Of a stretch of DNA of 64,000 bases, positions 2 to 15,910 are shown piece after piece (position 1 is the stretch's first letter; every line of letters begins with the position of its first letter). Position numbers and translations under genes: made by a program. Below the pieces are notes generated by a model, which had not been told where the DNA came from, ran no database searches, and saw only the letters and a program-made list of their open reading frames with translations. The DNA is from an uncultured Planctomycetia bacterium (GTDB taxonomy: Bacteria; Omnitrophota; Gorgyraeia; VGKH01; JBHPFN01), in NCBI GenBank assembly GCA_964406665.1, contig CAYOSQ010000003.1, forward strand, positions 38,641 through 102,640. The letters are read 5' to 3'.

Positions 2-469
2 GTAAAAGTAGTTGTCAATATTCAGGGAGATGAGCCTTTGATTCAACCTTCGATGGTAGACAAGCTTGCCCATGAATTATTAGAAGACCCTGAATGTGTA
101 ATGGCTACCTTGGTTAAGCGAATAACTAATCTTGAAGAAATCAATAATCCTAATATAGTTAAGGTTGTAACGGATAGGAGTGGCTATGCTCTTTATTTTT
201 CCCGCTCACCGATTCCTTATAAGCGAAGTGATAGTTTTAGCGAAACAATTTATTTCAAGCATATTGGTTTATATGCATATACTAAAGATTTCCTTTTCAC
301 CTTTAAAAATCTTCCTAAATCTCAGCTAGAAGCTACTGAAAAACTTGAACAACTACGCGTGTTAGAGTCTGGTTTTAAAATCAAGACAGTAGAGACTGAT
401 GTTGAAACTATTGGGGTTGATACCTATGAAGATCTTGAAAAGGTAAAAGAGAAGATGAGAGGTATGTAA
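2..469 (+). CDS. kdsB: 3-deoxy-manno-octulosonate cytidylyltransferase (CMP-KDO synthetase), 5'-truncated by window edge
   Basis: Frame-2 translation from position 2 reads VKVVVNIQGDEPLIQP..., the conserved KdsB GDEPL region. It is followed by the KDO operon. Confidence 0.85.
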   Translation, partial: VKVVVNIQGDEPLIQPSMVDKLAHELLEDPECVMATLVKRITNLEEINNPNIVKVVTDRSGYALYFSRSPIPYKRSDSFSETIYFKHIGLYAYTKDFLFTFKNLPKSQLEATEKLEQLRVLESGFKIKTVETDVETIGVDTYEDLEKVKEKMRGM

Positions 470-1290
470 TGATGAATAGGACAATCAGTTTAAAAAATGT
501 AAAAATTGGTTCTAAAAAACCCATCATATTGATTGCCGGACCTTGCGTAATCGAAGATAAAAAGAGTTGTATCGCTATCGCAAAAAAGCTTAAACAAATT
601 ACCTCTGAGTTAAAGATACCTTTTATTTTCAAGGCTAGCTATGACAAGGCTAATCGTAGTTCTTTGCGATCTTTTAGAGGTTTAGGTATTGATAAGGGCT
701 TGGATATTTTAAGCGAGATTAAAAAAAATATCAAAGTTTCCATTTTAAGCGACGTTCACAATATTAATGATGTAGAAAAAGCTGCGAAAGTGCTAGATGT
801 TATCCAGATACCGGCTTTTTTGTGCAGGCAGACTGATTTAGTTTTAGCGGTAGCTAGAACTAAAAAGATCGTAAATATAAAAAAGGGACAATTTCTTGCG
901 CCATGGGATGTAAAACAAGTAATTAAAAAGATTGAAAGCACAGGGAATAAAAAAATAATCATAACTGAGCGCGGAACAAGTTTTGGATACAATAATTTAG
1001 TTAGTGATTTCCGCTCGTTAGTAATTATGGCTAAAACTGGCTATCCTGTTATTTATGATGCCACACATAGCGTGCAGCTTCCTGGCGGGGCGGGAGTAGC
1101 CTCTTCCGGAGAAAGCGAATACGCAATTAATTTATCTCGCGCTGCTACGGCTGTTGGTTGTGCAGGGTTATTTCTTGAAGTGCATCCAAATCCTAAAAAA
1201 GCATTGTGCGACGGTCCAAATATGCTGGCCATAAAAGATATGAAAGATTTCTTAAAGCAAATTAAAGCAATAGATAGGTTGATAAAATGA
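469..1290 (+). CDS. kdsA: 2-dehydro-3-deoxyphosphooctonate aldolase (KDO-8-P synthase)
   Basis: 273 aa with PFIFKASYDKANRSS and AGPCVIE motifs typical of KdsA/DAHP-synthase-like fold. ATG overlaps the kdsB stop. Confidence 0.9.
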   Translation: MMNRTISLKNVKIGSKKPIILIAGPCVIEDKKSCIAIAKKLKQITSELKIPFIFKASYDKANRSSLRSFRGLGIDKGLDILSEIKKNIKVSILSDVHNINDVEKAAKVLDVIQIPAFLCRQTDLVLAVARTKKIVNIKKGQFLAPWDVKQVIKKIESTGNKKIIITERGTSFGYNNLVSDFRSLVIMAKTGYPVIYDATHSVQLPGGAGVASSGESEYAINLSRAATAVGCAGLFLEVHPNPKKALCDGPNMLAIKDMKDFLKQIKAIDRLIK

Positions 1291-2246
1291 TAATAAAAAA
1301 AGCCAGAGAAGTATTTGATGTTGAAGCAAAAGCAATTCAGAGTTTGAAGAAAAGAGTTGGCCCAGATTTTAAACGTGCGGTCAATTACATTTGTAAGTGT
1401 AAAGGGCGCATAGTTGTTACGGGGATGGGTAAGGGTGGAATAATCGGTCAGAAAATCTCTGCCACCATGTCTTCTTTAGGCACTCCTAGTCTTTGGCTGC
1501 ATTCTGCTGAGGCAATCCATGGTGATTTAGGCAGAGTTGCTAAAGATGATGTGGTTATTGTCTTATCATACAGCGGAGAAACTCAGGAAGTTAAAGGATT
1601 ATTACCCTTACTTAAGAAGATGGGGATCAAGATTATCTCCATTACGGGAAATACAAAATCAACTTTAGCAAAATATAGTGATATTGTTTTAGACATAAGC
1701 GTAAAAAAAGAAGCTTGTCCTTTGGGGCTTGCTCCGACAACAAGCACGACAGCAATGTTGGCAATGGGCGATGCGCTTGCAGTATGTGCGTCGGATAAAA
1801 AATCATTTAAGCGTGAAGACTTTGCGTTTTTCCATCCCGGCGGTGCTTTAGGAAAGCGTCTACTGCTTAAGGTTGAAGATATTATGCGTAAAAGCCAATC
1901 TAGTCCTGTAGTCAATCAGGAGAAAAAAATTAAAGAAGTACTTTTTGCAATTACCAAAGCGCGCGCTGGTTCAGCTACGATAGTTGATAACAAGGGAAAG
2001 CTGGTGGGGATATTTACTGACGGGGATTTGCGAAGACATTTAGAAGACGACCCAAATCTTTCAGAGAAAAAAGTTATGCAGGCGATGACAAAATCTCCTA
2101 CTGTAGTTTTTAAAGACATGTTAGCGGCCGAAGCACTTAGAATTTTACAAGAGAAAAAAATAGACGAGCTACCGGTAGTTGATATAAACAATAAACCAAT
2201 CGGCCTTTTGGACGTTCAAGACCTACTTAAAGCAGGATTAGTATAA
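1287..2246 (+). CDS. kdsD: Arabinose-5-phosphate isomerase (SIS domain + tandem CBS)
   Basis: 319 aa. SIS motif region GRIVVTGMGKGG, C-terminal CBS pair. ATGA overlap with kdsA. Confidence 0.85.
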   Translation: MIIKKAREVFDVEAKAIQSLKKRVGPDFKRAVNYICKCKGRIVVTGMGKGGIIGQKISATMSSLGTPSLWLHSAEAIHGDLGRVAKDDVVIVLSYSGETQEVKGLLPLLKKMGIKIISITGNTKSTLAKYSDIVLDISVKKEACPLGLAPTTSTTAMLAMGDALAVCASDKKSFKREDFAFFHPGGALGKRLLLKVEDIMRKSQSSPVVNQEKKIKEVLFAITKARAGSATIVDNKGKLVGIFTDGDLRRHLEDDPNLSEKKVMQAMTKSPTVVFKDMLAAEALRILQEKKIDELPVVDINNKPIGLLDVQDLLKAGLV

Positions 2247-2252
2247 TTCTTT

Positions 2253-2774
2253 ATGAAATCAATTAAAGATAGAGTTAAAAAAATTAAATTGTTACTTCTT
2301 GATGTTGATGGTGTTTTAACCAATGGAAAGATAGTTTTTGATAACGCCGGAAGAGAAATGAAGTATTTTGATGTCCAGGATGGCTTAGGTGTTGTTATTC
2401 TAAGAAGAGCTGGAATCAAAACAATAATCATTACTGCTCGTTCATCAAGCATTGTTGCAAAGCGTGCTAAAGATATGCAAGTATTTAAAACATATCAGGA
2501 TGCTCGGGATAAGCTTAAGGTCTACAAAAAAATACTTAAAGACATGAGGTTGTCTAGCAAAGAAGTTTGTTTTATTGGTGATGAATTAATAGATTTATCC
2601 GTTATAAAAAACGTTGGGTTTGGTGTTGCCGTTTCTAATGCAGTCGCAGAACTTAAAAGAGAAGCTCATTATATAACAAAACGACAAGGTGGCAGCGGCG
2701 CAGTACGGGAAGTCATAGAATTAATCTTAAAGAGTCAAAATAAATGGAAGAAAGCCATTAAAATTTACCAGTGA
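2253..2774 (+). CDS. kdsC: KDO-8-phosphate phosphatase (HAD superfamily)
   Basis: 173 aa. LLLDVDGVLTNGKI HAD motif I and overall KdsC length. Confidence 0.85.
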   Translation: MKSIKDRVKKIKLLLLDVDGVLTNGKIVFDNAGREMKYFDVQDGLGVVILRRAGIKTIIITARSSSIVAKRAKDMQVFKTYQDARDKLKVYKKILKDMRLSSKEVCFIGDELIDLSVIKNVGFGVAVSNAVAELKREAHYITKRQGGSGAVREVIELILKSQNKWKKAIKIYQ

Positions 2775-3577
2775 TGAAAAAAATAATCTTATTTTTTATG
2801 ATTTTCTTTATCTCCGGCATGGTAATTGAGGCTGATGAAGCTGAGCAGAAATTTCTTGGGTTTCATTTAACTGGTGTTTCTTCAGGTGGTGATAAAACCT
2901 GGGAAGTCAGGGGTGAATCTGCTGATATCTTCACCGATGTAGTTAAGCTTACGAATATAGTTGCCAATGTTTATGGGGAAGAAGAGATGACCTTAACCGC
3001 AAACGAAGGTAATCTGAATAAAACTGACGGTAATTTACTTTTTAAAGAAGACGTTGTGGCAAGTACGCCTGATGGCGCAAAAATGACAACGGATTCATTA
3101 AGTTGGAATCGAGATAGCAATGTAATTTCCACGGAAGATTTTGTAACGGTTGAGAAAGAAAGTATGGTGGCAACAGGTACTGGTGTTGAAGCAAACACGG
3201 AGTTGAATCAGGCGCAGATGAAAAAAGACGTTACAGTTGAATTCAACTCATTAGATGAAAATAAAAAGATGAGAAAAACGGTTATTACTTGTGATGGTCC
3301 ACTGGAAATTGATTATCAAAATCAAATTGCAGAATTTAAAAATAACGTAGTCGTTACTGACGAACAGGGAAATATGGCTGCAGATTATATGAAGCTTTTC
3401 ATAAATTTTGAGACTAAACAAATGGAAAAAATAATTGCATCGGGTAATGTTAAAATTCAGCGAGGAGAAAATACAAGCTACAGCGAGCAGGCTACCTATA
3501 TTGCGACTGAACAACGTGTAATTTTATCGGGAAAACCAAAATTAATTTTCTTCACCGAAGAACAGGTCGAGGAGTAA
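2771..3577 (+). CDS. LptC/LptA-like OstA-fold periplasmic LPS transport protein with N-terminal membrane anchor
   Basis: 268 aa. N-terminal hydrophobic anchor, beta-rich Thr/Asn-rich body. Sits at the position occupied by lptC(-lptA) between kdsC and lptB. Confidence 0.5.
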   Translation: MMKKIILFFMIFFISGMVIEADEAEQKFLGFHLTGVSSGGDKTWEVRGESADIFTDVVKLTNIVANVYGEEEMTLTANEGNLNKTDGNLLFKEDVVASTPDGAKMTTDSLSWNRDSNVISTEDFVTVEKESMVATGTGVEANTELNQAQMKKDVTVEFNSLDENKKMRKTVITCDGPLEIDYQNQIAEFKNNVVVTDEQGNMAADYMKLFINFETKQMEKIIASGNVKIQRGENTSYSEQATYIATEQRVILSGKPKLIFFTEEQVEE

Positions 3578-3578
3578 C

Positions 3579-4301
3579 ATGCGCTTATTAGAAACAAAAG
3601 GATTGGTTAAAACTTATGATGGACGAGCCGTAGTTAACGGAGTAGATATTTCTATTAGGCGTGGTGAAATTGTGGGTTTATTAGGACCAAATGGTGCAGG
3701 TAAAACAACTACTTTTTATATGATAGTTGGTATTATCCCACCGGATAAGGGAAAGATTGTTTTCGATCAACAGGGAATTACCAGGCTATCAATTCATGAG
3801 CGTTGCCGTTTAGGCATGGGATATCTATCTCAGGAAGCATCAGTTTTTAGAAAACTTTCTGTTGAAGAAAATATTATGGCAATATTGGAGACACTTAAGA
3901 TTGGACCACGCGAACGTAAAAAAAGATTACAATCACTTTTGGAAGAATTGAACATTGCGCATTTGGCAAAGAATAAGGCTTACACCTTATCCGGAGGTGA
4001 GAGGCGTCGTTTAGAGATCACGCGTGCTTTAGTAACCAATCCATCGTTTATACTTTTAGATGAGCCGTTTTCCGGAATAGATCCTATAGTCGTTGCCGAT
4101 GCCCAGGAGATTATCAAAGATTTAAAGAATAAAGGTTTGGGGATTTTACTTACTGATCATAATGTGCGTGAAACATTAGCTATAACAGACAGAGCGTATC
4201 TTATTGCTGAGGGGAGAATCTTAATTTCTGGAAATGCGCAGGAATTAATAAATGACCAAAAAGCACGTAAACTATATTTGGGTGAAGAATTCAGCATGTA
4301 A
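3579..4301 (+). CDS. lptB: LPS export ABC transporter ATP-binding protein
   Basis: 240 aa. Walker A GPNGAGKTT, signature LSGGERRRLEI, Walker B ILLDEPFSGID. Classical LptB N-terminus and length. Confidence 0.9.
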   Translation: MRLLETKGLVKTYDGRAVVNGVDISIRRGEIVGLLGPNGAGKTTTFYMIVGIIPPDKGKIVFDQQGITRLSIHERCRLGMGYLSQEASVFRKLSVEENIMAILETLKIGPRERKKRLQSLLEELNIAHLAKNKAYTLSGGERRRLEITRALVTNPSFILLDEPFSGIDPIVVADAQEIIKDLKNKGLGILLTDHNVRETLAITDRAYLIAEGRILISGNAQELINDQKARKLYLGEEFSM

Positions 4302-4328: not shown

Positions 4329-5234
4329 ATGAAGGCAGAACTTAAAAAAATTGATGCATGCAAGAGACAACTAAACATTGAATTATCTAAAGAGATAATA
4401 GATAAAAAATTTGAAGAAGTATATAAAGAAATCGGCAAGCAGGCTAATATTAAGGGATTCCGCCCCGGGAAAGTTCCTAAGGATATTTTAATTAAACATC
4501 ATGCTCAGCTGGCGCGCGAGGAAGTGTTGAAATCTTTGATTCCTGAGTATTATCAAAAGGCCCTTATGGAGCAAAGTCTTGCTGCTGTAGACTTGCCTGA
4601 GATTCAGGATATTAAATTTACCGATGACTTCCTTTCTTTTAAGGCAGAATTCGAAATTAGGCCTGAGATTAAAATAAAGCAATATAAAGGTTTGAAAGTG
4701 AAAAGGAAATCAGCTGATGTTTCCGATGATGATGTTGAAAAAGCACTGGACTATCTTAAGAAATCAAAAGGAGATAAAGAAGAAGTAAAAATTGACGATG
4801 ATTTTGCTAAAGGTATGGGTTATCCTAGTCTTAAAGAACTTAGAGAGATGCTAAGAAAACAGCTTGAAATTTCCAAGGAACAACAGGTTAAAATGGATGT
4901 GGAAAATCAGGTGATCGAGCAACTAATTAAGAATTCTGACTTAGCGGTTCCCCAAGGTTCAGTTGTTAAGCAGTTAGACTATATGGTTAAGCAGACCAAG
5001 CAAAATCTTGCATATCAGGGAATGAAGCAGGAAGACGTTGAAAAAAAAGATGAGGAATTACGCAAAAGATTCAAAGATGATGCAGCAAAATCGGTTAAGG
5101 TGTTCTTTATCTTAGATAAGATCGCCGAGCTTGAAAATATCAAGATAGAAAAGGAACACGATTTAACCAGAACGGTGATAGAATTTTTGTTAAAAGAGGC
5201 ACAATGGCAAGAAGGGGGTAAAGATGGAAAGTAA
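4329..5234 (+). CDS. tig: Trigger factor lacking the FKBP-type PPIase domain
   Basis: 301 aa. N-domain ribosome-binding signature GFRPGKVP, then a direct transition into C-domain-like helical sequence. Sits upstream of clpP as in tig-clpP-clpX loci. About 130 aa shorter than canonical Tig. Confidence 0.7.
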
Positions 5235-5823
5235 GAATCAGGTACTTGTTCCTATGGTAGTTGAGCAAAGCAGCAGAGGTGAGAGGGCGTATGACATTTA
5301 TTCCAGACTTCTTAAAGATAGAATTGTTTTTATCGGCACCCCGGTAGATGATCATATTGCTAATATTGTTATTGCGCAGCTATTATTCTTACAGATGGAA
5401 GATGCAAAGAAGGAAATTAGTATTTATATCAACACACCAGGTGGTATAGTAACCGCAGGTTTAGCTTTATATGATACAATCCAGTTCTTAAAGCCGGATG
5501 TTGCTACTTATTGTGTCGGTCAAGCTGCGAGTATGGGTGCTGTGCTTTTAGCTGCAGGAACCAAGGGAAAGCGATATGCGCTTCCACATGCACGTATTAT
5601 GATTCATCAACCTTGGGGAGGAGCTCAGGGAGCAGCCTCAGATATTTCCATTCAGGCCCAAGAAATCTTACGCCTTAAAGATAAATTAAGTGAAATTTTG
5701 GCAAAGCATACCGGTAAATCAATCGAGCAGATTAAAACAGATTCAGATAGGGATTATTTTATGTCATCAGATGAGGCTAAGGAATATGGCATAATTGATG
5801 AGGTTATTTCAGCTAAGAAGTGA
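5224..5823 (+). CDS. clpP: ATP-dependent Clp protease proteolytic subunit
   Basis: 199 aa. Catalytic Ser region GQAASMGA, the His in MIHQP, and the ClpP N-terminus RIVFIG. Confidence 0.95.
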
Positions 5824-5832
5824 GGGAGGAAG

Positions 5833-6975
5833 ATGAGTAGCAAAAAGACATATTTATTAACACCAGGGCCAACGCCATTACCACCAGAAGTAATGGAGGC
5901 GCTTTCGCGTCAGATAATTCATCATAGAACTTCGCAGTTCCGCGATATATTGAAACAGGCTGAAGAGGGCCTGCAGTATGTATTCCAGACAAAGAATGAT
6001 GTATTTATTTTTGCATCTTCCGGAACAGGAGCCATGGAGGCAGCGGTTTGCAATTTACTTTCTGCAGGTGACAAAGCCATAACTGTTGAAGGTGGAAAGT
6101 TTGGTGAACGCTGGACGGAAATCTGCAAAAGTTACGGTGTTGAGCCTATTGTTGTTGAGGTAGAGTGGGGTAAATCAGTTGAACCTAAAGTCATAGGTGA
6201 TCTTCTTAAAAAAGACAAAAGCATCAAAGCAGTATTTACTACTCTTTGTGAAACCTCTACTGGTGTTACAGCAGATATAAAGACTATTGCAGATATTGTA
6301 AAAAAGACTTCCGCAGTTTTGGTTGTTGATGCAATTAGTGGGCTTGGCGCAGTTGATATTCAGACGGATAACTGGGAAGTGGATGTTGTTGTTGCTGGTT
6401 CTCAGAAAGGTCTTATGCTTCCCCCGGGATTAGGTTTTTTAAGCACAAGCGAAAAAGCCTGGAAATTAATTGAAGAATCTAAACTACCAAAATATTATTT
6501 TGATTTGAAAAAAGCCAAGAAGGCGTTAGATAAAACCGATACTGCATTTACACCGGCAATCGGATTAATTATTGCGTTAAATGAAGCTCTTGATATTATA
6601 AAGAAAGAAGGTTTGCAGAATGTATTTAAACGTTTTGCCAAAATGACTGAAGTAACCCGTAACGCTGCTGAAGCTATTGGGCTTTCTTTGTTTCCGGATA
6701 AGGGTTGTGCCTCAAATGCAGTTGTCGCACTTAGGCTTCCTGATTCTATTGATGGAGCAGCATTGGTTAAAACTATGCGGGATGTTAACGGAGTTGGTTT
6801 AGCCGGAGGACAAGCACAATTAAAAGGAAAAATAATCCGCATCGCCCACATGGGCTATATAAAGGAAGAAGATATATTAGCTGGATTTGAAGTGTTGGAG
6901 AAGGTGCTTGCAGAAATGGGTCATAAGCTTACTGCAGGTGCATCTGTTAAGATAATAAAAGAGCAACTTTTGTAA
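5833..6975 (+). CDS. Class-V PLP-dependent aminotransferase (serine-pyruvate / alanine-glyoxylate / archaeal-type phosphoserine aminotransferase family)
   Basis: 380 aa. N-terminal LLTPGPTPLP, PLP-lysine context VVAGSQKGL. Confidence 0.8.
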   Translation: MSSKKTYLLTPGPTPLPPEVMEALSRQIIHHRTSQFRDILKQAEEGLQYVFQTKNDVFIFASSGTGAMEAAVCNLLSAGDKAITVEGGKFGERWTEICKSYGVEPIVVEVEWGKSVEPKVIGDLLKKDKSIKAVFTTLCETSTGVTADIKTIADIVKKTSAVLVVDAISGLGAVDIQTDNWEVDVVVAGSQKGLMLPPGLGFLSTSEKAWKLIEESKLPKYYFDLKKAKKALDKTDTAFTPAIGLIIALNEALDIIKKEGLQNVFKRFAKMTEVTRNAAEAIGLSLFPDKGCASNAVVALRLPDSIDGAALVKTMRDVNGVGLAGGQAQLKGKIIRIAHMGYIKEEDILAGFEVLEKVLAEMGHKLTAGASVKIIKEQLL

Positions 6976-7050
6976 TTTATTTTGTTTCTTTAGCGGATAA
7001 TTATCTCAAGCTGAGAAAATATCCGCTTTGGTATTAATTAAGGAGGGGTA

Positions 7051-8001
7051 ATGTTTCGATCACAAATTAAAGTATTAGATTGCACTATCCGTGACGGAGG
7101 TCTTATCAATAATCATGATTTCGATAGACGTTTTGTGCGCGAAGTATACAAGGCCGTGTCTGCTGCAAATGTTGATTATATCGAGCTAGGCTACAGGAAT
7201 TCAAAGAAGATGTTTTCTCAGAAAGATTTCGGCTTATGGAAATTCTGCGATGATGAAGAAATAAATAAAGTTATCGAAGGTATTGAGTCTAATACAAAGA
7301 TTTCCGTAATGTGTGATGTCGGCCGAGTAGAAGAACAAGACGTTAAGCCAAAGTCAGAGAGCCCGGTAGATATGATAAGGGTTGCAAGTTATGTTAAGGA
7401 TATTGATAAAGCAATCGCCTTAGTAAATCAATTTGATGAAAAAGGGTATGAAACCACTATTAATATTATGGCGATATCCCGCGACCAGGATAGATTTCTA
7501 GACGAAGCGCTTGAACAGGCGGAGAAAGAAAGCAAAGCTCAGGTTATTTATATAGTTGATAGTTTTGGTGCGCTTTATCAAGAGACTGTTGAAGATCTGG
7601 TTAAAAGATTCAGGAGAATTGTTAAGACAAAAGAAGTTGGTTTTCACGGACACAACCACCAGCAGCTTGCTTTCGGCAATACAATCGAGGCTATAATGCA
7701 TAATGCTAATTATCTTGATGCCACTGTTTATGGTATTGGTCGCGCTGCAGGAAATTGTCCCTTAGAGCTTCTAGTGGGATTCTTAAAAAATCCAAAATTC
7801 GATATTCGTCCTCTATTGGATTTGATTTCTAAAGAGCTTATTCCTTTGAGGGATCAGATAGAATGGGGGTATATAATTCCTTATGCAATATCGGGAATGA
7901 TGAATATCCATCCTCGTGCAGCAATGGCGCTGAGAAACAGTGAGCAGAAAGAAAACTACAGGGAATTTTTTGAAAGCCTGGTAAATACCGACGAAGTCTA
8001 G
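7051..8001 (+). CDS. DRE-TIM metallolyase (HMGL-like; 4-hydroxy-2-oxovalerate aldolase-like) aldolase
   Basis: 316 aa. LDCTIRDGG N-terminal motif and FHGHNHQQLAFGNT...GIGRAAGNCPLE metal-site motifs, as in DmpG/HMGL-like enzymes. Confidence 0.7.
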   Translation: MFRSQIKVLDCTIRDGGLINNHDFDRRFVREVYKAVSAANVDYIELGYRNSKKMFSQKDFGLWKFCDDEEINKVIEGIESNTKISVMCDVGRVEEQDVKPKSESPVDMIRVASYVKDIDKAIALVNQFDEKGYETTINIMAISRDQDRFLDEALEQAEKESKAQVIYIVDSFGALYQETVEDLVKRFRRIVKTKEVGFHGHNHQQLAFGNTIEAIMHNANYLDATVYGIGRAAGNCPLELLVGFLKNPKFDIRPLLDLISKELIPLRDQIEWGYIIPYAISGMMNIHPRAAMALRNSEQKENYREFFESLVNTDEV

Positions 8002-8013
8002 TAGGCAAAATAT

Positions 8014-8649
8014 ATGGATGTAAAAAGTTTCCTTCAGCTTCCCATAATGGGGATTTTACGCGGTGTTTCTTCTGAAAGTATAATTCCACTTACAGAATCA
8101 GCAACCTCTTCCGGTTTAAAAACAATCGAGATAACAATGAATACCTCAGGTGCGCCTGAACTTCTTAAGAAGATGGTTAAGGTTGCTTCTGGTAACCTTA
8201 CCATAGGTGCTGGCACTGTTTTAAGCGAAGATGATGCAAAAGAAGCAGTTGATTCTGGGGCAACGTTCATTGTTTCTCCAACACTTGTTTCAGAGGTTGT
8301 AGAGTATTGTGCAAAAAACAAAATTCCTGTATTTCCTGGAGCATTTACTCCCCAAGAAATCTATAATGCCTGGAGAGCTGGAGCAACCATGGTTAAAGTG
8401 TTTCCGGCAAAGTTCTTTGGCCCCGCATATTTTAGAGAAATCAAAGGCCCTTTCAACGATATAAAACTTCTCGCCTGCGGCGGAGTTAATGAAGATACGA
8501 TTGAGCAGTTTTTTGTATCTGGAGCAGCAGCAGTTGCTTTTGGTGGAAGCATTTTCAAAAAAGATCTAATTGAAAGAAAAGATTTTTCTGCAATTGAAAA
8601 AAATATTAGATGTTTAGTTAACAAGGTGAAAAAAGTAAGCTCATCTTGA
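8014..8649 (+). CDS. eda: 2-dehydro-3-deoxyphosphogluconate / 4-hydroxy-2-oxoglutarate aldolase
   Basis: 211 aa. ILRG...IEIT...GAGTVL...FIVSP...GA.TP.E and KVFPA motifs typical of the KDPG aldolase family. Confidence 0.8.
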   Translation: MDVKSFLQLPIMGILRGVSSESIIPLTESATSSGLKTIEITMNTSGAPELLKKMVKVASGNLTIGAGTVLSEDDAKEAVDSGATFIVSPTLVSEVVEYCAKNKIPVFPGAFTPQEIYNAWRAGATMVKVFPAKFFGPAYFREIKGPFNDIKLLACGGVNEDTIEQFFVSGAAAVAFGGSIFKKDLIERKDFSAIEKNIRCLVNKVKKVSSS

Positions 8650-8674
8650 CGTTTTTTCCAGATAGATATACAAT
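8646..8674 (+). promoter_or_regulatory. Candidate sigma70-type promoter (TTGACG-17nt-TACAAT) for the Cys-rich triplet
   Basis: -35 TTGACG at 8646-8651 (overlaps eda stop). 17-nt spacer. -10 TACAAT at 8669-8674. About 40 nt upstream of the TTG start, with a GGAG RBS. Confidence 0.45.
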
Positions 8675-8712
8675 AATTAACAAAACAAGCCTATCAGTTT
8701 AAGGAGAGAGAC

Positions 8713-9636
8713 TTGCAGAAGTATTTTTTCCCCATTCTAATAATTGTTTTTTTCTTATCTTTATGCTTTCCTTGTTTTGCTCAAAGGGAATCAGTTACAA
8801 TTATCACTTATTATCCTGCCCCGTACGGAAATTATAAATATTTAGAAGCTAAAAAGAGTGCTGCAGTAGGAGATATCGGTGATTCAGGTACTCTCGGCAT
8901 AACCGAAGTCGATGATTTGCAGCAAGGAGAGCTGTTTGTAGAAGGTAATGTGACCTTTGGTACGCATATTGTTGATCCACCGATTGGTCAGGCAAAAACA
9001 GGAGAGCTAATTTATTTTGATGATACAGTAGATAACGGGTTTAAATATTTTGACGGAACAGATTGGATGTTGCCTGCTACAATGGGTGGAATGGGTGGTT
9101 GCTATGTTTCTTTTTGCGGGAATAGATTTGAAGGTATGGCCTCTCCAAGTGTACGCCGCTGTAGTTTTAATTCGGAAGCTTCTCCTGCCAATGTTTGCTT
9201 AGATGATTTTAGCCAGGTAGGAGATAGTGGTAGATATGGTTTTTGCTATGTTGATGACTTTCCTTCTTTTCATCATAGACATAAAGTGTATCATAGGCCA
9301 CCGGCTGATGACTCAGGTAATCCTTCTTGTGATGCGGGAGAGATTTTTTTTAGTGAGGGTTCAGCATATCTTTGTTGTAAAGATCCGGTTGCAAGTGTTA
9401 AGGCTTGTTATATATCCTATTGTGATTCTGCAGATGATAATTGTAGCTTTGGAGGAACACCTGCCGATCCTTGCATAGGAGGATTTGCGCAACAGGGAAG
9501 TAGTAGTACTTGGGGTTATTGTGAAGTTACTGCAGGTGGATGGATTCCAGGATATTATTTCCGTCCACCTCATGGAAACTGTGATTGGCGTTTTACTCCA
9601 CATGATATTGGAAACGCTTATTTATGTTGTAAATAA
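8713..9636 (+). CDS. Secreted cysteine-rich protein, paralog 1 (conserved N-domain + two 8-Cys modules, each ending YLCCK)
   Basis: 307 aa. TTG start with AAGGAGAG RBS. Signal peptide ending CFA|QRE. Mature N-terminus TIITYYPAPYG... shared with the next two genes. Two Cys modules (aa ~129-223 and ~231-307). Confidence 0.7.
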   Translation: MQKYFFPILIIVFFLSLCFPCFAQRESVTIITYYPAPYGNYKYLEAKKSAAVGDIGDSGTLGITEVDDLQQGELFVEGNVTFGTHIVDPPIGQAKTGELIYFDDTVDNGFKYFDGTDWMLPATMGGMGGCYVSFCGNRFEGMASPSVRRCSFNSEASPANVCLDDFSQVGDSGRYGFCYVDDFPSFHHRHKVYHRPPADDSGNPSCDAGEIFFSEGSAYLCCKDPVASVKACYISYCDSADDNCSFGGTPADPCIGGFAQQGSSSTWGYCEVTAGGWIPGYYFRPPHGNCDWRFTPHDIGNAYLCCK

Positions 9637-9647
9637 ATGTTTAAATT

Positions 9648-10214
9648 ATGCGAAATAGTTTAATTGTTAACAAAATATTTATTATTTGCATATTTGTGTT
9701 ATTTATTTTCTTCGTGATAGAGAGCTTTGCAGATGAAGGGCTAACGATTACAACTTATTATCCTGCCCCTTATGGGGTTTATAATCAGGTTGAAGCAAAA
9801 GCGGGATTTGCTGTAGGTGATATTTCAGGCATTGGTACAGTGGGGGATTTATATACGGGTGAGCTTTTTATATCTGACGGTGCGATTTTTAAACCAAAAA
9901 ACGTTGACCCTGGTGCAGGTGATGGAAAGCAGGGTGAGCTTATTTATAATGCTACAGAAGATACTTTCAAATTTTTCGCTGACGGCGCTTGGAATAATAT
10001 GATTGGAGGAGAGGTTTGTTATTTATCTTTTTGTAACGGTATGGTAGAAGATGATTGCAGTTTTGGTGGCACACCTTGCATAGGAGGCTTTACAAAACTT
10101 GAACCAAATGATGTTTATGGATTTGATCCTTATTGTGCAAACTGTCAATATGCTTTTGATATAAACGGCCAGGATATTATTTCTTCTGGTAGGATATATT
10201 TATGCTGTAAATAA
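9648..10214 (+). CDS. Secreted cysteine-rich protein, paralog 2 (N-domain + one 8-Cys module, ends IYLCCK)
   Basis: 188 aa. Signal peptide ...ESFA|DEG. TITTYYPAPYG...AVGDI...GELF...FKPKNVDP...GELIYN...FKFFADGAW. Then CYLSFC...DCSFGGTPCIGGF...YC..C...YLCCK. Confidence 0.7.
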   Translation: MRNSLIVNKIFIICIFVLFIFFVIESFADEGLTITTYYPAPYGVYNQVEAKAGFAVGDISGIGTVGDLYTGELFISDGAIFKPKNVDPGAGDGKQGELIYNATEDTFKFFADGAWNNMIGGEVCYLSFCNGMVEDDCSFGGTPCIGGFTKLEPNDVYGFDPYCANCQYAFDINGQDIISSGRIYLCCK

Positions 10215-10226
10215 AATTATTAGCGT

Positions 10227-10886
10227 ATGAAGAAAAACAAAACTTTTCAATTATTATTTTTAGCTATAATATTTTTTGCTCATTGTAATTGTGTTAGAGC
10301 AGAAGATATATCTTTTACAACATATTATCCTTCTCTACAGGGTGTTTATTCGGGCTTATCTTCTGAAGAGGCATTTGCTGTGGGTGATATATCAGATTCT
10401 GGTACTGCTGCAGTAGATGAGACCACTGATTTAGATCAGGGTGAAGTTTTTGTTGAAGATAGCGTAATATTCAAGCCAAAAAACGCTGACCCGATTCCTG
10501 CTGATTCCAGGGCTGGTAGTTTGATATATAATGATGTAGAGGATATGTTTAAATATTATGATGGAACTCAATGGAAAGGGTTTACCGGAGCTGCAATAGA
10601 AGGTGGTGGTTGTTATATTTCTTATTGTAAGTCTCCAGGTGGCATAAGTGGTTTTTGTTCTTTTGGAACTGTCTGGGATGTTGCTGATCAACATCCTTGT
10701 AGAGAAGATTTAGGTTATCAGCAAGTTGGTGTGGGTGATCTTCATGGTAGGTGCTGCAGGGCTTCTAATCCACCTGGTCTTCATTGTACAGGGGCAGATC
10801 ATTTCTATGCTGGTGGAGGCTGTGGCAATGCTGGTAGCAGCTGGGTAATCAGAAATTCTTTTTATATATTTCTTTGCTGTAAATAG
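10227..10886 (+). CDS. Secreted cysteine-rich protein, paralog 3 (N-domain + 10-Cys module, ends IFLCCK)
   Basis: 219 aa. Signal peptide ...VRA|EDI. SFTTYYPSLQG...AVGDI...GEVF...FKPKNADP...GSLIYN...FKYYDGTQW. Cys module CYISYC...FCSFG...PC...CC...C...C...FLCCK. Confidence 0.7.
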   Translation: MKKNKTFQLLFLAIIFFAHCNCVRAEDISFTTYYPSLQGVYSGLSSEEAFAVGDISDSGTAAVDETTDLDQGEVFVEDSVIFKPKNADPIPADSRAGSLIYNDVEDMFKYYDGTQWKGFTGAAIEGGGCYISYCKSPGGISGFCSFGTVWDVADQHPCREDLGYQQVGVGDLHGRCCRASNPPGLHCTGADHFYAGGGCGNAGSSWVIRNSFYIFLCCK

Positions 10887-11114
10887 AAATAGTCAATTAT
10901 TAATTTTTCAATAACTTCATTTCCATTATTCAAATAATCTAATGATTTTTAAGTGTTATCTTGACTTATCCTTTAAGTAGAGGTAAACTAATCTTCGCTG
11001 ATAATTGAAGGATTTATCAACCAAACCTATAAATTATTCAACTTTTTCAGGACTTATTTAAAACAAAAATAGAAATAAATATTAATATAAACTACTAAAG
11101 CATAAGGAGTTGAT

Positions 11115-12701
11115 ATGAAGTTATTGATTGGTGATTCATTATCGAACGAAGGAGTTAAGATATTAGAGAAGGTTAAGGGTTTAAAGGTAGATGTCAATAC
11201 AGGCCTTAAGCCTGATGAGCTTAAGAAGATAATAAAAGATTATGACGCGATTGTGATAAGAAGTGCAACTAAGCTTACTGCTGATGTACTTAAAGAGGCT
11301 AAAAATCTAAAATATATCGGACGTGCTGGTGTCGGATTAGACAACGTAGATCTAGAAGCTGCAACTAAGCAGGGTATTATAGTTATGAACGCACCAGGCG
11401 GAAACACTATTTCTACTGCTGAGCATACAGTTAGTATGATTTTAGCACTTTCCAGGAATATCCCTCAAGCTCATGCTTCTACATCGGGTGGAAATTGGGA
11501 ACGTAAGAAGTTTATGGGTGCTGAGGTATACGGAAAAACTTTAGGTATTGTGGGCTTGGGCAAAATTGGAACCGCGGTTGCCAAGCGTGCCTTAGCATTT
11601 GGGATGAAGATTGTAGCGTATGATCCTTTTATATCTTTAGAAGTTGCCAAGCAGTTGGGTGTTGAAATTGTTGAGCTAAAGGATTTATTCCCTAAGGTTG
11701 ATTATATTACCGTGCACACTCCTCTTTCTGATGAGACAAAGCATATGATTTCAGATAAACAGTTCGCTGCTATGAAGAACGGGGTTAAGGTGATTAATTG
11801 TGCCCGAGGGGGAATTATTGATGAAGTAGCGCTTATTAAGGCAATAGATTCGGGTAAAGTTTCCGGTTGTGCAATGGATGTATTCGAAACTGAACCTCCG
11901 GGAAAAGAGTCTCCGCTTCTTAAATCGGACAAAATTATTAGAACTCCCCATATCGGTGCTTCAACTGAAGAAGCCCAGGTAAGTGTGGCAATTGAAATCG
12001 CCCACACGATAAAAGATGCATTAACTGATAACGTGATTAAAAATGCTGCCAACTTTCCTTGTGTGGAAGCAGAGGTCTGTGAAGTATTAAGCCCTTATAT
12101 AGCTCTTTCTGAAAAAATGGGAGAGTTGGCTTGTCAATTATTCGATGGTCGCATTAATAAGGTTGTCGTTGACTATAATGGACAGATCGCCGAGCTTAAG
12201 AATGAATCGGCAACTATTGCTGTAGTTAAGGGTTTGCTCACTCCGGTAGTCCGTGAGATGGTAAATTATGTCAATGCAAAAAGCTTGGCTAAAGAGAGAG
12301 GTATTAAGGTTAAGGTTTCGGAATCTACTTCATCAGAGGAAGAGTTTGTTAATTTAATTACAGTTAAGGTTTCAGACGGAAAGTCAGATTTATTGATTTG
12401 CGGTACACTTTCAAGCAATAACCAGCCTAGAATAGTTAAGATAAATGATTTTTATGTTGAGGCCAAACCCGAAGGCCATATGCTTTTCATGCGTAATTCT
12501 GATTTACCCGGAGTTATCGGTGCAATAGGAACTATCTTAGGAAACAATAAGGTAAATATTGCAACAATGACGTTCGGCAGAACCGAAGTCGGAGGAGATG
12601 CGCTTTCTGTAGTTAATATAGACAGTCCATTATCGGCTAAAATCCTCGAAGAAATAAAAAAAGCCAAACATATTAAATCTGTAAAATTAATCAAATTATA
12701 A
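11115..12701 (+). CDS. serA: D-3-phosphoglycerate dehydrogenase (with C-terminal ACT domain)
   Basis: 528 aa. NAD-binding GIVGLGKIGTAVA, catalytic region, C-terminal ACT-like segment. Canonical long SerA. Confidence 0.9.
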   Translation: MKLLIGDSLSNEGVKILEKVKGLKVDVNTGLKPDELKKIIKDYDAIVIRSATKLTADVLKEAKNLKYIGRAGVGLDNVDLEAATKQGIIVMNAPGGNTISTAEHTVSMILALSRNIPQAHASTSGGNWERKKFMGAEVYGKTLGIVGLGKIGTAVAKRALAFGMKIVAYDPFISLEVAKQLGVEIVELKDLFPKVDYITVHTPLSDETKHMISDKQFAAMKNGVKVINCARGGIIDEVALIKAIDSGKVSGCAMDVFETEPPGKESPLLKSDKIIRTPHIGASTEEAQVSVAIEIAHTIKDALTDNVIKNAANFPCVEAEVCEVLSPYIALSEKMGELACQLFDGRINKVVVDYNGQIAELKNESATIAVVKGLLTPVVREMVNYVNAKSLAKERGIKVKVSESTSSEEEFVNLITVKVSDGKSDLLICGTLSSNNQPRIVKINDFYVEAKPEGHMLFMRNSDLPGVIGAIGTILGNNKVNIATMTFGRTEVGGDALSVVNIDSPLSAKILEEIKKAKHIKSVKLIKL

Positions 12702-12954: not shown

Positions 12955-14100
12955 ATGAAGAAAATATTAGTTACGCTTATATTTCTTTTATTGGCGACAA
13001 CATGCTTTGCTGCGCCTAAGATATCTATTGATGATGGATATTTCGATTTAGGCATTATGGCAGAGGGGCAAGTTTATCCTTATAAATTTAGAATTAAGAA
13101 TATCGGCGATGAAGATCTTAAGATAGATGTAATTCATGTAAGTTGCGGATGTGTTAAGATTGTTAAACCGGACGGTCCGATAACTGTTTCTGCGGGTGAA
13201 GAATTTGAATTACAATTTAATTTTGATACGACAGGTTTTTTTGGTGAGACGGTAAAATATATTTATGTAAATACAAATGTGCCAAAAAATCCGTTGCTTA
13301 GGATTAGGCTAGATACTTTTATTGAGGCACAAGAGCAGGTTCTTTTAAGAAGATTTGAGAAGTTTAGCGGCTGGACAGTAGTTGGTGTCGGACTCGTTGA
13401 TGGTGTGAATCCTTGTGCGTTTACTGTGCTTATATTTTTCTTATCATTTTTAAGCTTTGCTGGATATGGTCGGCGTCAGATTATAGTTCTAGGCAGCGTA
13501 TTTATATTAACAGTATTTCTTACTTATTTAGCTATTGGTTTGGGGATATTCGAATTTTTGCACAATCTGCCTAATTTTGAAATTGTTTCAAAAATTATTT
13601 ATTTCATCACTGCTTGTCTGGCTATTGTCTTAGGATTCCTCAGTCTTTATGATTGGTGGATATTTAAAAAGACAAAAGATCCGGATAAGATAAAATTAAA
13701 ACTGCCTGGAATGGTGAAAAAGCAGATTCATGGTGTTATTAAAGATCATACAAAGGATAAATCCAATAAGCAAAGCGTTATAAAACTAGCATTAACAGCT
13801 TTAAGTTGTGGTTTTATTGTTTCTTTACTTGAGTCTGTTTGCACCGGCCAACTTTATGTACCTACGATTGTTTATGTTCTAGGCGTACCTGGTTTGAAGG
13901 CACAAGCCTGGCTGTACTTGTTGTTATACAATTTAATGTTTATTGTGCCGTTGGTAACAATATTTATGTTTGCGCTATTTGGGGTTACTTCAGAAGGATT
14001 TGCTAAGATTGCTAAGTTGCATCTTGCAAAAATTAAGCTTATTACGGCATTTGTATTTTTCTTTTTGGGATTATTTTTATTATTTATTGTTAAACACTAA
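12955..14100 (+). CDS. DUF1573 domain fused to a DsbD/CcdA-like thiol:disulfide transporter membrane domain
   Basis: 381 aa. Signal peptide. DUF1573 signature ...KIDVIHVSCGCVKIVKPDGPI.... Then about 6 TM helices with conserved Cys in VNPCAF (TM1) and SVCTGQ (later TM), as in the CcdA/DsbD_2 family. Confidence 0.6.
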   Translation: MKKILVTLIFLLLATTCFAAPKISIDDGYFDLGIMAEGQVYPYKFRIKNIGDEDLKIDVIHVSCGCVKIVKPDGPITVSAGEEFELQFNFDTTGFFGETVKYIYVNTNVPKNPLLRIRLDTFIEAQEQVLLRRFEKFSGWTVVGVGLVDGVNPCAFTVLIFFLSFLSFAGYGRRQIIVLGSVFILTVFLTYLAIGLGIFEFLHNLPNFEIVSKIIYFITACLAIVLGFLSLYDWWIFKKTKDPDKIKLKLPGMVKKQIHGVIKDHTKDKSNKQSVIKLALTALSCGFIVSLLESVCTGQLYVPTIVYVLGVPGLKAQAWLYLLLYNLMFIVPLVTIFMFALFGVTSEGFAKIAKLHLAKIKLITAFVFFFLGLFLLFIVKH

Positions 14101-14116: not shown

Positions 14117-15910
14117 ATGAAAAGAAAAGTTTTTATTATTGCACTGTTTTGCTTAAGTCTTTTATTAACAAGCAATTCTTTATATGCTGAAAAAGTAACT
14201 ATAGCCTATACTGGTGGTTCATATTCAAATCTATATCCTTGTAGATGTCCTAAATCACCGAATGGTGGGGTGGCTCGACGTGCAACAATTCTAAATAAGT
14301 TGTGCAAAGAATACCCCAGTTTGTTATTGCTTGATTCTGGCGGATATTTTGGCGGTGGAATGCAGGATGGTGAAAAGACTACTCTGGAATTAGATAAAAA
14401 GCGAACTGTATTAAATTTAGAAATTATGGAGTTGTTGGGATATGATGTAGTCGGAATAAGCAAGGAAGAAATGAATTTCGGTAGAGATTTTCTGATTGAT
14501 AAAATAAAAGATACTGGAATTAATTTTCTTGCATGCAACATAGATTTACCTGGAGCAGCGCCGTTTATCATTAAAGAGGCTAGCTCTGTCAAGATCGGCA
14601 TTCTCGCAGTTGCACCATTAGATTTTATTACAGAAAATAAACAGGATTTTTCTGATGTTTTGAAAACAGTTACGGGAAACATAGAATATATGTCTAAGCA
14701 AGGTGCAGAAATTGTTATTGTGTTGAGTTACCTTGGGCATAGCTTAGATATTCAATTGATGGAGCAGGTTAAAGGAATAGATGTTTTAATAGGAACTAGT
14801 GAGACGAGCAAGGCTGATCCAGAAGGTAAAATAGGAGAGACTTTATATTTAAGACCTTATTATTGGGCTAAAACTGTAAAAATTGCTGAATTAGATATAG
14901 CAGATGGCAAGGTAAACAGTTTTGAGATTAAGCAGTTTCCCTTGAGTTCTGATATTGTAGATGATCCCGAAATTCAGTCTTTACTTCCTCGTTGTTTTTC
15001 AAAAAAGCAATGTAAAAAACGTGGGTTTGTTGGAAGTTGTGAATCTCCTGGAGAAATAACTGCTAAATGTACTTATGAAGAACAGGCAAAGATTCCTTTA
15101 TTGATAATAAGGCCCGATAGCTGTAAAACTTGCAATGCTAGAAGGGCTTTATCTGATGTTCAGAAAAATATTCCTGGTATTTTTCCTTCATTTGTTAACG
15201 AGTCATCGAAAAGAGGTAAATCTTTTATCAAAAAATACAATATTAAGCTATTGCCGGCATTTCTGTTAGGTCGCTCAATAGAAAGAGAAGCAACATTTAG
15301 ACAACTTCTTGACAAAAAAATTATTCAGAAAAAAGATAATAGTTATTATTTAATCAGTCCTTCCTATGCGGGGGGATCGTATTTTACTAACAGAAAGAAT
15401 ATAGATGGGCGTCTAGATTTATTTATAAGTTTATATGATAAAAAGGTAAAAAATGTTCTTAAAGTTACTAAGCAGTTAATTGAAACCATTGAAGACAAGA
15501 TAGATTTTAAGCTTCATTTTTTAGTTTTTGAAAATAAAGAGACAGGTGAATTAGTTTCGAAATATGGTAAGACTGAGGTAGAAGAAGCTAAACGCGCATT
15601 ATGCATTATAGAGAAATATCCGGATAAAACATGGGATTATTTATTCTGTCGTATAGATAATATAGAAAGTAGTTGGTGGGATGATTGCGCCAAAAGCGCT
15701 GGTATTGATGTGGAATCAATAAAAGAATGTGCAAAATCTCAAGAAGCAATTGATTTGATAAAAAATAACATTAAGCTTTCTAAAAAGCTGGGAGTTTCTT
15801 ATGGTCCACTGTTTCTTTTGAATAATAGGGAAATTTTTGGAATTGGAGAAAATACTACAGTAGAAGAATTAAAGTTAATAGTCAAACAGGAGGAAAAAGA
15901 TGACAAATAA
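14117..15910 (+). CDS. Secreted protein: degenerate 5'-nucleotidase/metallophosphatase-like N-domain + thioredoxin/DsbA-like domain(s) with CKTC motif
   Basis: 597 aa. Signal peptide. N-domain aligns by eye to the 5'-nucleotidase N-terminus, but the metal ligands are replaced (YTGGSYS for HTNDxHG, DSGG for DxGD). LLIIRPDSCKTCN... is a thioredoxin-fold CxxC. The C-terminal GVSYGPLFLLNNREIFG resembles the DsbA G-x-GTP-tfvING end. Confidence 0.55.
   Translation: MKRKVFIIALFCLSLLLTSNSLYAEKVTIAYTGGSYSNLYPCRCPKSPNGGVARRATILNKLCKEYPSLLLLDSGGYFGGGMQDGEKTTLELDKKRTVLNLEIMELLGYDVVGISKEEMNFGRDFLIDKIKDTGINFLACNIDLPGAAPFIIKEASSVKIGILAVAPLDFITENKQDFSDVLKTVTGNIEYMSKQGAEIVIVLSYLGHSLDIQLMEQVKGIDVLIGTSETSKADPEGKIGETLYLRPYYWAKTVKIAELDIADGKVNSFEIKQFPLSSDIVDDPEIQSLLPRCFSKKQCKKRGFVGSCESPGEITAKCTYEEQAKIPLLIIRPDSCKTCNARRALSDVQKNIPGIFPSFVNESSKRGKSFIKKYNIKLLPAFLLGRSIEREATFRQLLDKKIIQKKDNSYYLISPSYAGGSYFTNRKNIDGRLDLFISLYDKKVKNVLKVTKQLIETIEDKIDFKLHFLVFENKETGELVSKYGKTEVEEAKRALCIIEKYPDKTWDYLFCRIDNIESSWWDDCAKSAGIDVESIKECAKSQEAIDLIKNNIKLSKKLGVSYGPLFLLNNREIFGIGENTTVEELKLIVKQEEKDDK

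Follow-up and report, generated by a model that had tools for sequence, protein, structure and literature searches.

The closest described counterparts of the proteins reported here are the mosaic adhesive trimer (MAT) fibres of Bdellovibrio bacteriovorus (Caulton et al. 2024, PMC10769870). In the passages of that paper covered here, MATs are described as proteins with a Sec signal peptide and swappable tips, falling into S74 and non-S74 subgroups; a conserved, beta-rich N-domain stands straight after the signal peptide and is presumed to attach to some element of the surface, the stalks are intertwined trimers with the loop motif V-G-G/N-pi-x-x-P-x-x-x-L, and Peptidase_S74 (S74) acts as an intramolecular chaperone ensuring the trimerisation of beta-helical fibres. 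Supplementary Table S3 of the same paper names as a MAT one protein of 713 amino acids from Omnitrophica, whose tip is S74-like, and MAT-like fibres in Omnitrophota therefore have precedent. In the present study we have analysed three tandem genes for paralogous, cysteine-rich proteins on the + strand of a 64,000-nucleotide stretch of DNA (contig CAYOSQ010000003.1 of assembly GCA_964406665.1, positions 38,641 to 102,640; the whole stretch is called the window, and all coordinates are positions in it). We propose, with a probability of about 50%, that these genes encode miniature, non-S74, MAT-like surface adhesins of an Omnitrophota-wide tail-fibre-like family. Omnitrophota are widespread, uncultured, ultra-small bacteria which have been proposed to be predators or parasites.

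As in MATs, a Sec signal peptide is followed directly by a conserved N-domain of ~90 amino acids, stalk elements are shared with S74 phage fibres (a motif of the G-x-V/L-G-I/L-G-T-x-x-P-x-x-x-L type), and the C-terminal tips are variable and independently folding; both families include S74 and non-S74 members, are multi-copy per genome and belong to lineages for which predation or parasitism has been proposed. The three genes code for 307, 188 and 219 amino acids and each ends in LCCK, as had been described in an earlier, sequence-only reading of the window. Paralog 1 (8713-9636, TTG start) is composed of a signal peptide (8713-8781, amino acids 1-23), an N-domain (8782-9087, amino acids 24-125) and two tandem tip modules, A (9088-9381, amino acids 126-223, a domain match to the tip hidden Markov model, HMM) and B (9382-9633, amino acids 224-307), both ending AYLCCK. 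Paralog 2 (9648-10214) has its signal peptide at amino acids 1-28, its N-domain at amino acids 29-120 (9732-10007) and a tip at amino acids 121-188 (10008-10211) that ends IYLCCK; in paralog 3 (10227-10886) the same parts lie at amino acids 1-25, 26-122 (10302-10592) and 123-219 (10593-10883), the tip ending IFLCCK. Pairwise identities are 37-42% for the whole proteins and 46-49% for the N-domains, and conserved stretches are 66-84% identical in DNA. The two DNA strings previously taken as a trace of this paralogy indeed occur exactly twice each, at 8806/9753 and 9894/10476 and thus within a few bases of where they had been placed; by chance, no occurrence in the window would be expected.

The conservation of the N-domain from the mature N-terminus onwards had been recognised, its two-part nature had not: by profile comparison, it is composed of a near-invariant N-terminal motif and one divergent stalk repeat of S74 trimeric tail-fibre proteins. 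When a profile restricted to N-domains of the window type (A7) was aligned by hhalign with one built only from the units of giant S74 proteins (A8), a probability of 95.9% and an E-value of 6e-9 were obtained over A7 positions 22-93, so that the likeness to tail fibres formerly suspected for G-x-L-I-Y-N...F-K-Y-x-D-G-T-x-W proved to be real. In paralog 1 the motif ESVTIITYYPAPYGNY is followed by a unit reading AVGDI...GELFVE...GELIYF...FKYFDGTDW. The N-domain HMM matches paralog 1 at E 3e-37 and paralog 3 at E 1.6e-38, and the canonical stalk-unit HMM matches paralog 3 at E 4e-7. The giants P0016 and P0022 end in Peptidase_S74 (E 2e-17 and 4e-16, respectively) and repeat the unit G-I-G-T..P...L.V.S...G-F-L-x-P-R-M-T..Q-R-D-A-I...G-L-x-I-Y-N-T.....Y-Y-D-G..W. 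The stalk motif is degenerate in the window proteins (A-V-G-D-I-S...), while other members keep G-N-V-G-I-G-T-x-x-P-x-x-x-L, and several small ones keep the full canonical unit GNVGIGT..P...L.V.S...PRMT..QRD.I...G..IYNT.....Y.G..W; longer motif-bearing proteins in family loci continue into A-D-L-V-V-E-G-N-V-G-I-G-T units.

The N-motif also heads proteins that end in the trimerisation chaperone. Three Omnitrophota proteins (L015, 496 amino acids; L018, 342; L049, 352) combine the same motif with GNVGIGT units and a C-terminal Peptidase_S74 domain, scoring 58.8, 40.4 and 54.3 bits, respectively, against a cutoff of 22 and with S-D-x-x-x-K in all three. Motif and stalk therefore belong to a trimer in those relatives, and by analogy we infer the same trimeric state for the window's non-S74 proteins. 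Structural matches were weak, and each of them is a trimeric fibre or spike of a phage. Compared with the S74 phage tail fibres, tailspikes and endosialidases themselves, with which they are linked by stalk-unit homology and by these S74-ended relatives, the window proteins are without S74, possess signal peptides and are encoded on a chromosome amid housekeeping genes.

Signal-peptide features, judged by a hydrophobic h-region and the -3/-1 rule, are present in all three paralogs and, over the family as a whole, in 174 of 183 members, and the predicted cleavage is usually located 3-4 residues upstream of the conserved motif. The sites formerly assigned, between CFA and QRE in paralog 1, SFA and DEG in paralog 2, and VRA and EDI in paralog 3, fit the same heuristic. 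A lipoprotein reading of the cysteines in the signal peptides was rejected by eye, as LSLC and AHCNC are not lipoboxes. The distance of the motif from the start of the open reading frame (ORF) is always 22-58 residues, and the consensus of the mature N-terminus is x-E-x-[IL]-T-x-T-T-Y-Y-P-x-P-Y-G-x-Y, in which the Glu is conserved in 85% of members and the Gly and the last Tyr, both lying outside the pattern used for selection, in 98% each. The AlphaFold2 model of paralog 2 shows a helix at residues 4-25 and an overall predicted local distance difference test (pLDDT) of 76.7, reaching ~93 in the hairpin region (amino acids 80-130) and ~61-66 in the N-motif; the low value for the motif is consistent with a segment that would need a partner or an oligomer.

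All pairs of N-domains are detectable by BLAST (median identity 40%) versus 5% of tip pairs, and the tips of 96 members fall into 42 single-linkage classes. The tips of the window sit in the largest class, of ~20 members, whose core is G-G-G-C-Y-x-x-[YF]...C-x-x-G-[FW]...W-G-Y-C...[FY]-x-P-P-G-x-C...G-x-A-[YL]-x-C-C-[KQR]. The sequence-only reading had counted eight cysteines per module and ten in the third protein; on the translations this stands for the tips of paralog 2 (8) and paralog 3 (10), but paralog 1 holds 16, since it carries two complete modules of 8 Cys each that had been overlooked, module B being the most canonical copy of the class. The minimal form of the class has 6 Cys, and the window type adds two (in C-Y-x-S-[FY]-C and C-S-F-G-G) whose co-occurrence in the alignment suggests a fourth disulfide. 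Cysteines amount to 6.7% of the tips and most N-domains have none, and even numbers were found in 117 of the 147 members with at least two (binomial p 2.5e-13), a pattern such as is expected of fully disulfide-paired extracytoplasmic domains. Modelled in isolation, the tip reaches a pLDDT of 91.5 and is predicted with high confidence as a compact all-beta domain with four disulfides and no solved relative, apparently a new disulfide-rich fold.

Among the alternative tips, that of member P0071 is an Lcl_C domain (E 1.4e-6), named for the Legionella collagen-like protein. Lcl, an adhesin of Legionella, and other trimeric adhesins built of stalk and tip resemble the window proteins in the stalk bearing a small C-terminal binding domain; the latter differ in having no collagen repeats and tips unrelated to Lcl_C. 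The C-terminal head domains of Resistin/RELM are also listed among the closest known systems. A natural variant of paralog 3 in an ENA assembly (P0011) carries C176G (codon at 10752-10754) and retains 9 Cys, which suggests that the extra CC pair of paralog 3 is outside the core disulfide set. A distinct metagenomic homologue of 296 amino acids (P0021) has a tandem double tip like that of paralog 1, the first tip ending LCSR instead of LCCK; tip duplication therefore predates this genome. The sole matches of the tip profile (A9) in the PDB, at E 0.5-1.9, are the disulfide-rich "knob" mini-domains of bovine antibodies with ultralong heavy-chain complementarity-determining regions 3 (YYC...CP.G[WY]T...G.YGYG), a likeness that is almost certainly convergence or chance. 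A word-indexed search with the tip profile returned only an identical copy and missed the query's own paralogs as well, so that it tells little about the rarity of the tip.

The family had been called unrecognised, and so it is in the libraries searched. The three paralogs have no match in Pfam or NCBIfam even at E<=10, PHROGs gave only weak matches (E 0.0015-0.06, over residues ~71-131), and profiles of the whole proteins, N-domain, stalk unit and tip met only chance-level PDB sequences (Bd2133 at E 6; the bovine antibody knobs at E 0.5), the Bdellovibrio MATs being represented in the PDB by C-terminal parts. The Pfam models DUF2793 (PF10983) and Phage_fiber_rpt (PF22337) have 0 matches in the three paralogs, and in the family only 2 of 64 members reach E 0.065 with DUF2793. 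The motif T-T-Y-Y-P-x-P-Y-G-x-Y was not found in a text search of the literature, nor was such a family described in the Omnitrophota survey (PMC10066038) as covered by term searches. It is also missing from the MAT paper, in the main-text passages and the term searches of its supplement, together with the phylum-wide multi-copy spread of the motif, members of 160-285 mature amino acids that possess only one stalk unit, the class of disulfide-rich tips and their tandem duplication.

These proteins are not the isolated oddity that they first appeared to be; the family is large, extends over the phylum and comprises many alternative tips. When 5.8 billion clusters were searched by word index with paralog 2, 9 proteins were obtained, of which one came from an Omnitrophica metagenome-assembled genome (MAG). 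With a profile of the N-domain (A3), an exhaustive HMMER search gave 3,096 representatives at E<=1e-3, 326 of them at E<=1e-10, in two classes: small proteins (~110-420 amino acids) in which the whole domain follows the signal peptide, and giants in which 5-34 repeats match the second half of the domain only. About 100 of the top 150 matches are of 110-420 amino acids and are matched over the whole domain directly after the signal peptide; repeat-bearing matches other than the S74 giants score with DUF2793, Phage_fiber_rpt, DUF5907 and Prophage_tail. When one genome per species was scanned for the pattern T[IFL][TS]TYYPAP, the motif was confirmed at 137 loci, nearly all in Candidatus Omnitrophota MAGs and a few in genomes labelled Elusimicrobiota or "Planctomycetia", and one complete genome holds at least seven copies. 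The window itself contains the three members only. On these sequence grounds the family is large, unnamed and essentially confined to Candidatus Omnitrophota. The N-motif was also seen on Elusimicrobiota-labelled contigs and on one 1.9-kb contig labelled Woesearchaeota (L047; L016, L048, L056, L060, L069), where either the family reaches past Omnitrophota or the contigs were mis-binned.

We propose that the proteins would be exported by Sec and, from the sequence features described, cut by signal peptidase I 3-4 residues before the motif. The new N-terminus, E-x-[IL]-T-x-T-T-Y-Y-P-x-P-Y-G-x-Y, would form the base of the fibre and dock to a conserved element of the Omnitrophota surface. The next ~70 residues, homologous to one divergent S74-type repeat, would build a short trimeric stalk, and a Gly-rich linker would bear the compact all-beta tip with its four predicted disulfides; that the cysteines are paired has statistical support. 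The tip would then bind a ligand on another cell or surface, and three paralogs with four tip copies may provide several binding specificities from one operon.

Several observations weigh against this proposal. Peptidase_S74 is absent from the three window paralogs, which have no Pfam match at E<=10, and trimerisation, surface anchoring, the docking partner and the ligand are inferred. No conserved neighbour indicating an export or anchoring machine was found in the family loci, and Sec export alone in a diderm cell delivers a protein to the periplasm only. With ~160-285 amino acids in the mature proteins and a single degenerate stalk unit, "fibre" may overstate their shape. The low pLDDT of the N-motif could be explained by the shallow alignment alone. 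Furthermore, the window proteins are of 188-307 amino acids versus 417-1,915 for the MATs listed in the supplementary entries covered, and their ~20-residue motif stands against a Bdellovibrio N-domain of ~130 amino acids. Other differences from MATs are the one degenerate stalk unit in place of long beta-helices, the all-beta tip with four disulfides and the protein with two tips in tandem; trimerisation and surface location of the window proteins are predictions.

In Omnitrophota the candidates for host recognition were previously only Tad/type IV pili and giant ORFs, as far as the survey passages covered here describe (PMC10066038). The present family offers concrete and tractable candidate recognition proteins, small enough for expression, with modular tips amenable to screening on glycans or on candidate host cells and a diagnostic N-terminal motif usable for genome mining and for fishing out the surface receptor that would hold the fibre. 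It would also extend the MAT/tail-fibre design to a much smaller size and add an apparently new disulfide-rich fold. A bolder and only tentative version of the proposal is that these are phylum-specific miniature trimeric fibres for host recognition, in which one invariant peg (T-T-Y-Y-P-x-P-Y-G-x-Y), plugging every fibre into the cell surface, is combined with interchangeable binding tips, that of the window having a four-disulfide beta fold not seen before; if true, they would be the smallest known adhesins derived from tail fibres, and peg and socket would constitute a new surface-display system.

A different use of the same N-terminus has to be considered, although we hold it to be rather unlikely: the proteins could belong, as subunits or accessory tips, to a surface polymer, for example a pilus-like filament, a coat resembling an S-layer or the giant "coat" proteins of Omnitrophota. 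The invariant N-terminal strand would then insert into an adjacent subunit or some larger fibre in a donor-strand or adaptor manner, and no autonomous trimer would be formed. The position of the motif exactly at the mature N-terminus, where the protein is most conserved, and its poor order in the monomer model would suit such an insertion, and the abundance in Omnitrophota of pili (type IV and Tad) and of giant surface ORFs, as given in the part of the survey covered (PMC10066038), counts in the same direction. Members bracket a block of prepilin-like genes in one locus (L003), and the location of one subgroup between pheS and pheT in ~9 genomes suggests constitutive expression. However, prepilin-like genes lie near members in only 3 of 80 loci (L003 among them), on which ground an obligatory link with type IV pilins was rejected; no usher, chaperone or sortase-like neighbour recurs, and the members have no prepilin cleavage motif. 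Type IV pilins and pseudopilins have a prepilin leader cut between G and F-T-L-I-E and a hydrophobic helix at the N-terminus of the mature protein; the window proteins have no such leader, and their hydrophobic segment occupies the very N-terminus, with an A-x-A-type site behind it. Finally, the co-occurrence with S74 chaperones indicates homotrimers.

Slightly less probable again is that the three genes encode soluble secreted effectors (bacteriocin-like toxins, signalling peptides or inhibitors), in which the Cys-rich tip would be the active part and the N-domain would serve for secretion or targeting or as a pro-domain. Small, Cys-rich proteins with signal peptides in a tandem array are in keeping with it, as are hypervariable C-termini resembling those of polymorphic toxins, a secreted HExxH metalloprotease-like gene adjoining members in six loci as a possible processing enzyme, and a tip fold without known relative, which leaves room for an activity. 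Against this, no immunity-like gene, dedicated exporter or toxin-domain match was found in the window or related loci, PADLOC not having been searched; the N-domain has its homologue in a structural repeat of fibres, the same N-motif heads S74-ended fibres, and one alternative tip is the adhesin-type Lcl_C. The locus is moreover at least 99.9% identical in 11 assemblies and so gives no hint that an arms race has diversified it within the population. Of the roles put forward in the sequence-only reading, that of surface adhesin or receptor-binding protein is the best supported. Prophage or tailocin tail-fibre remnants without a cellular role are very improbable, since the stalk unit common with phage-type S74 fibres and weak PHROG and BFVD matches to tail-fibre proteins are outweighed by housekeeping flanks (aldolase, SerA, PurA) free of phage genes, by Sec signal peptides, which to our knowledge phage fibres do not have, by the conservation of a multi-copy family across the whole phylum and by a search of IMG/VR viral contigs in which the N-motif was not found, the last also leading us to reject a phage origin of the motif.

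Regarding expression of the proposed adhesins, paralog 1 is preceded by a Shine-Dalgarno-like AAGGAGA (8701-8707), read from the sequence 5 nt upstream of its TTG; paralogs 2 and 3 have no clear Shine-Dalgarno site and start 11 and 12 nt, respectively, behind the stop codon of the gene before them, a spacing suggestive of a single operon. The near-consensus promoter proposed earlier, TTGACG-17-TACAAT (8646-8674, + strand), lies in a gap of 63 nt that follows the gene of the aldolase, with its -35 hexamer overlapping the aldolase stop codon; it is the top-scoring + strand site of the region (10/12 match), but such sites are not clearly in excess of shuffled sequence (16 vs 10.2 +/- 3.0), and it is a putative promoter. 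An intrinsic terminator was looked for at the triplet and none was found. The locus was recovered in at least 11 independent assemblies at >=99.9% identity and is therefore no assembly artefact. The 307-aa gene is also called in independent assemblies, the exact proteins, that of paralog 1 included, are recorded in NCBI, ENA, Logan and JGI, and paralog 2 is present on 16 contigs. Diversification by a retroelement or phase variation was rejected on this identity across 11 assemblies and because no template/variable repeat pair exists in the locus.

The triplet is flanked by housekeeping genes, namely an aminotransferase, an HMGL-like protein, 2-keto-3-deoxy-6-phosphogluconate aldolase, SerA and PurA. 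Every named best match of the window PurA (adenylosuccinate synthetase) is from Candidatus Omnitrophota/Omnitrophica, with up to 79% identity, which assigns the window to Omnitrophota, and acsABCDE has been reported within Omnitrophota in the part of the survey covered (PMC10066038). Further downstream, a DUF1573 immunoglobulin-like protein (12955-14100) is fused to a half with multiple transmembrane segments bearing the motifs GVNPCAF and SVCTGQ. Directly after it, ~3 kb from the triplet, lies the gene of a signal-peptide protein (14117-15910) with a C-terminal strand-CxxC-helix motif, IIRPDSCKTCNA; its thioredoxin-type sequence I-I-R-P-D-S-C-K-T-C-N-A gives weak DsbA/thioredoxin matches (E ~4e-4). 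Judged from these motifs, the two proteins may constitute an exported thiol-disulfide system. Disulfide-rich exported proteins had been regarded as anomalous in this organism; the even Cys counts throughout the family and this exported thioredoxin-like protein speak otherwise. Other assemblies also have SerA, a 78-aa ORF and the DUF1573 gene after the triplet, and the 597-aa gene of the pair was seen in L005 only.

No universal neighbour gene was found among the family loci, and the recurring contexts that were seen elsewhere (the pheS/pheT slot and HExxH, radical S-adenosylmethionine (SAM) and prepilin-like genes) are all absent from the surroundings of the window's triplet. Radical SAM genes are located a few genes from members in seven loci; a maturation as ribosomally synthesised and post-translationally modified peptides was rejected, since these genes are real but never adjacent, limited to those loci and absent from the window. 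The secreted HExxH protein of ~258 amino acids (HELGHSFGLRDE; weak Peptidase_M64 and M12 matches) adjoins members in L003 (5796-6572), L008, L009, L010, L012 and L076 and, by its motif, could be a processing protease; as an obligatory partner it was rejected for this locus, where it is absent. The pheS-member-pheT arrangement, an odd site for a surface-protein gene, holds one subgroup downstream of infC-rplT-trkAH (L031, L062, L067, L071, L073, L078, L081 and L083, and nearby in L032). In L003, at 4531-11461, three members bracket a block in which prepilin-like genes (KGLTLFEVMIA, KGITLIELLIA, ALTIVELIVV) stand together with genes of small secreted proteins, and at 459-3836 of the same contig a GlmS-like gene is split by an intein with a LAGLIDADG domain.

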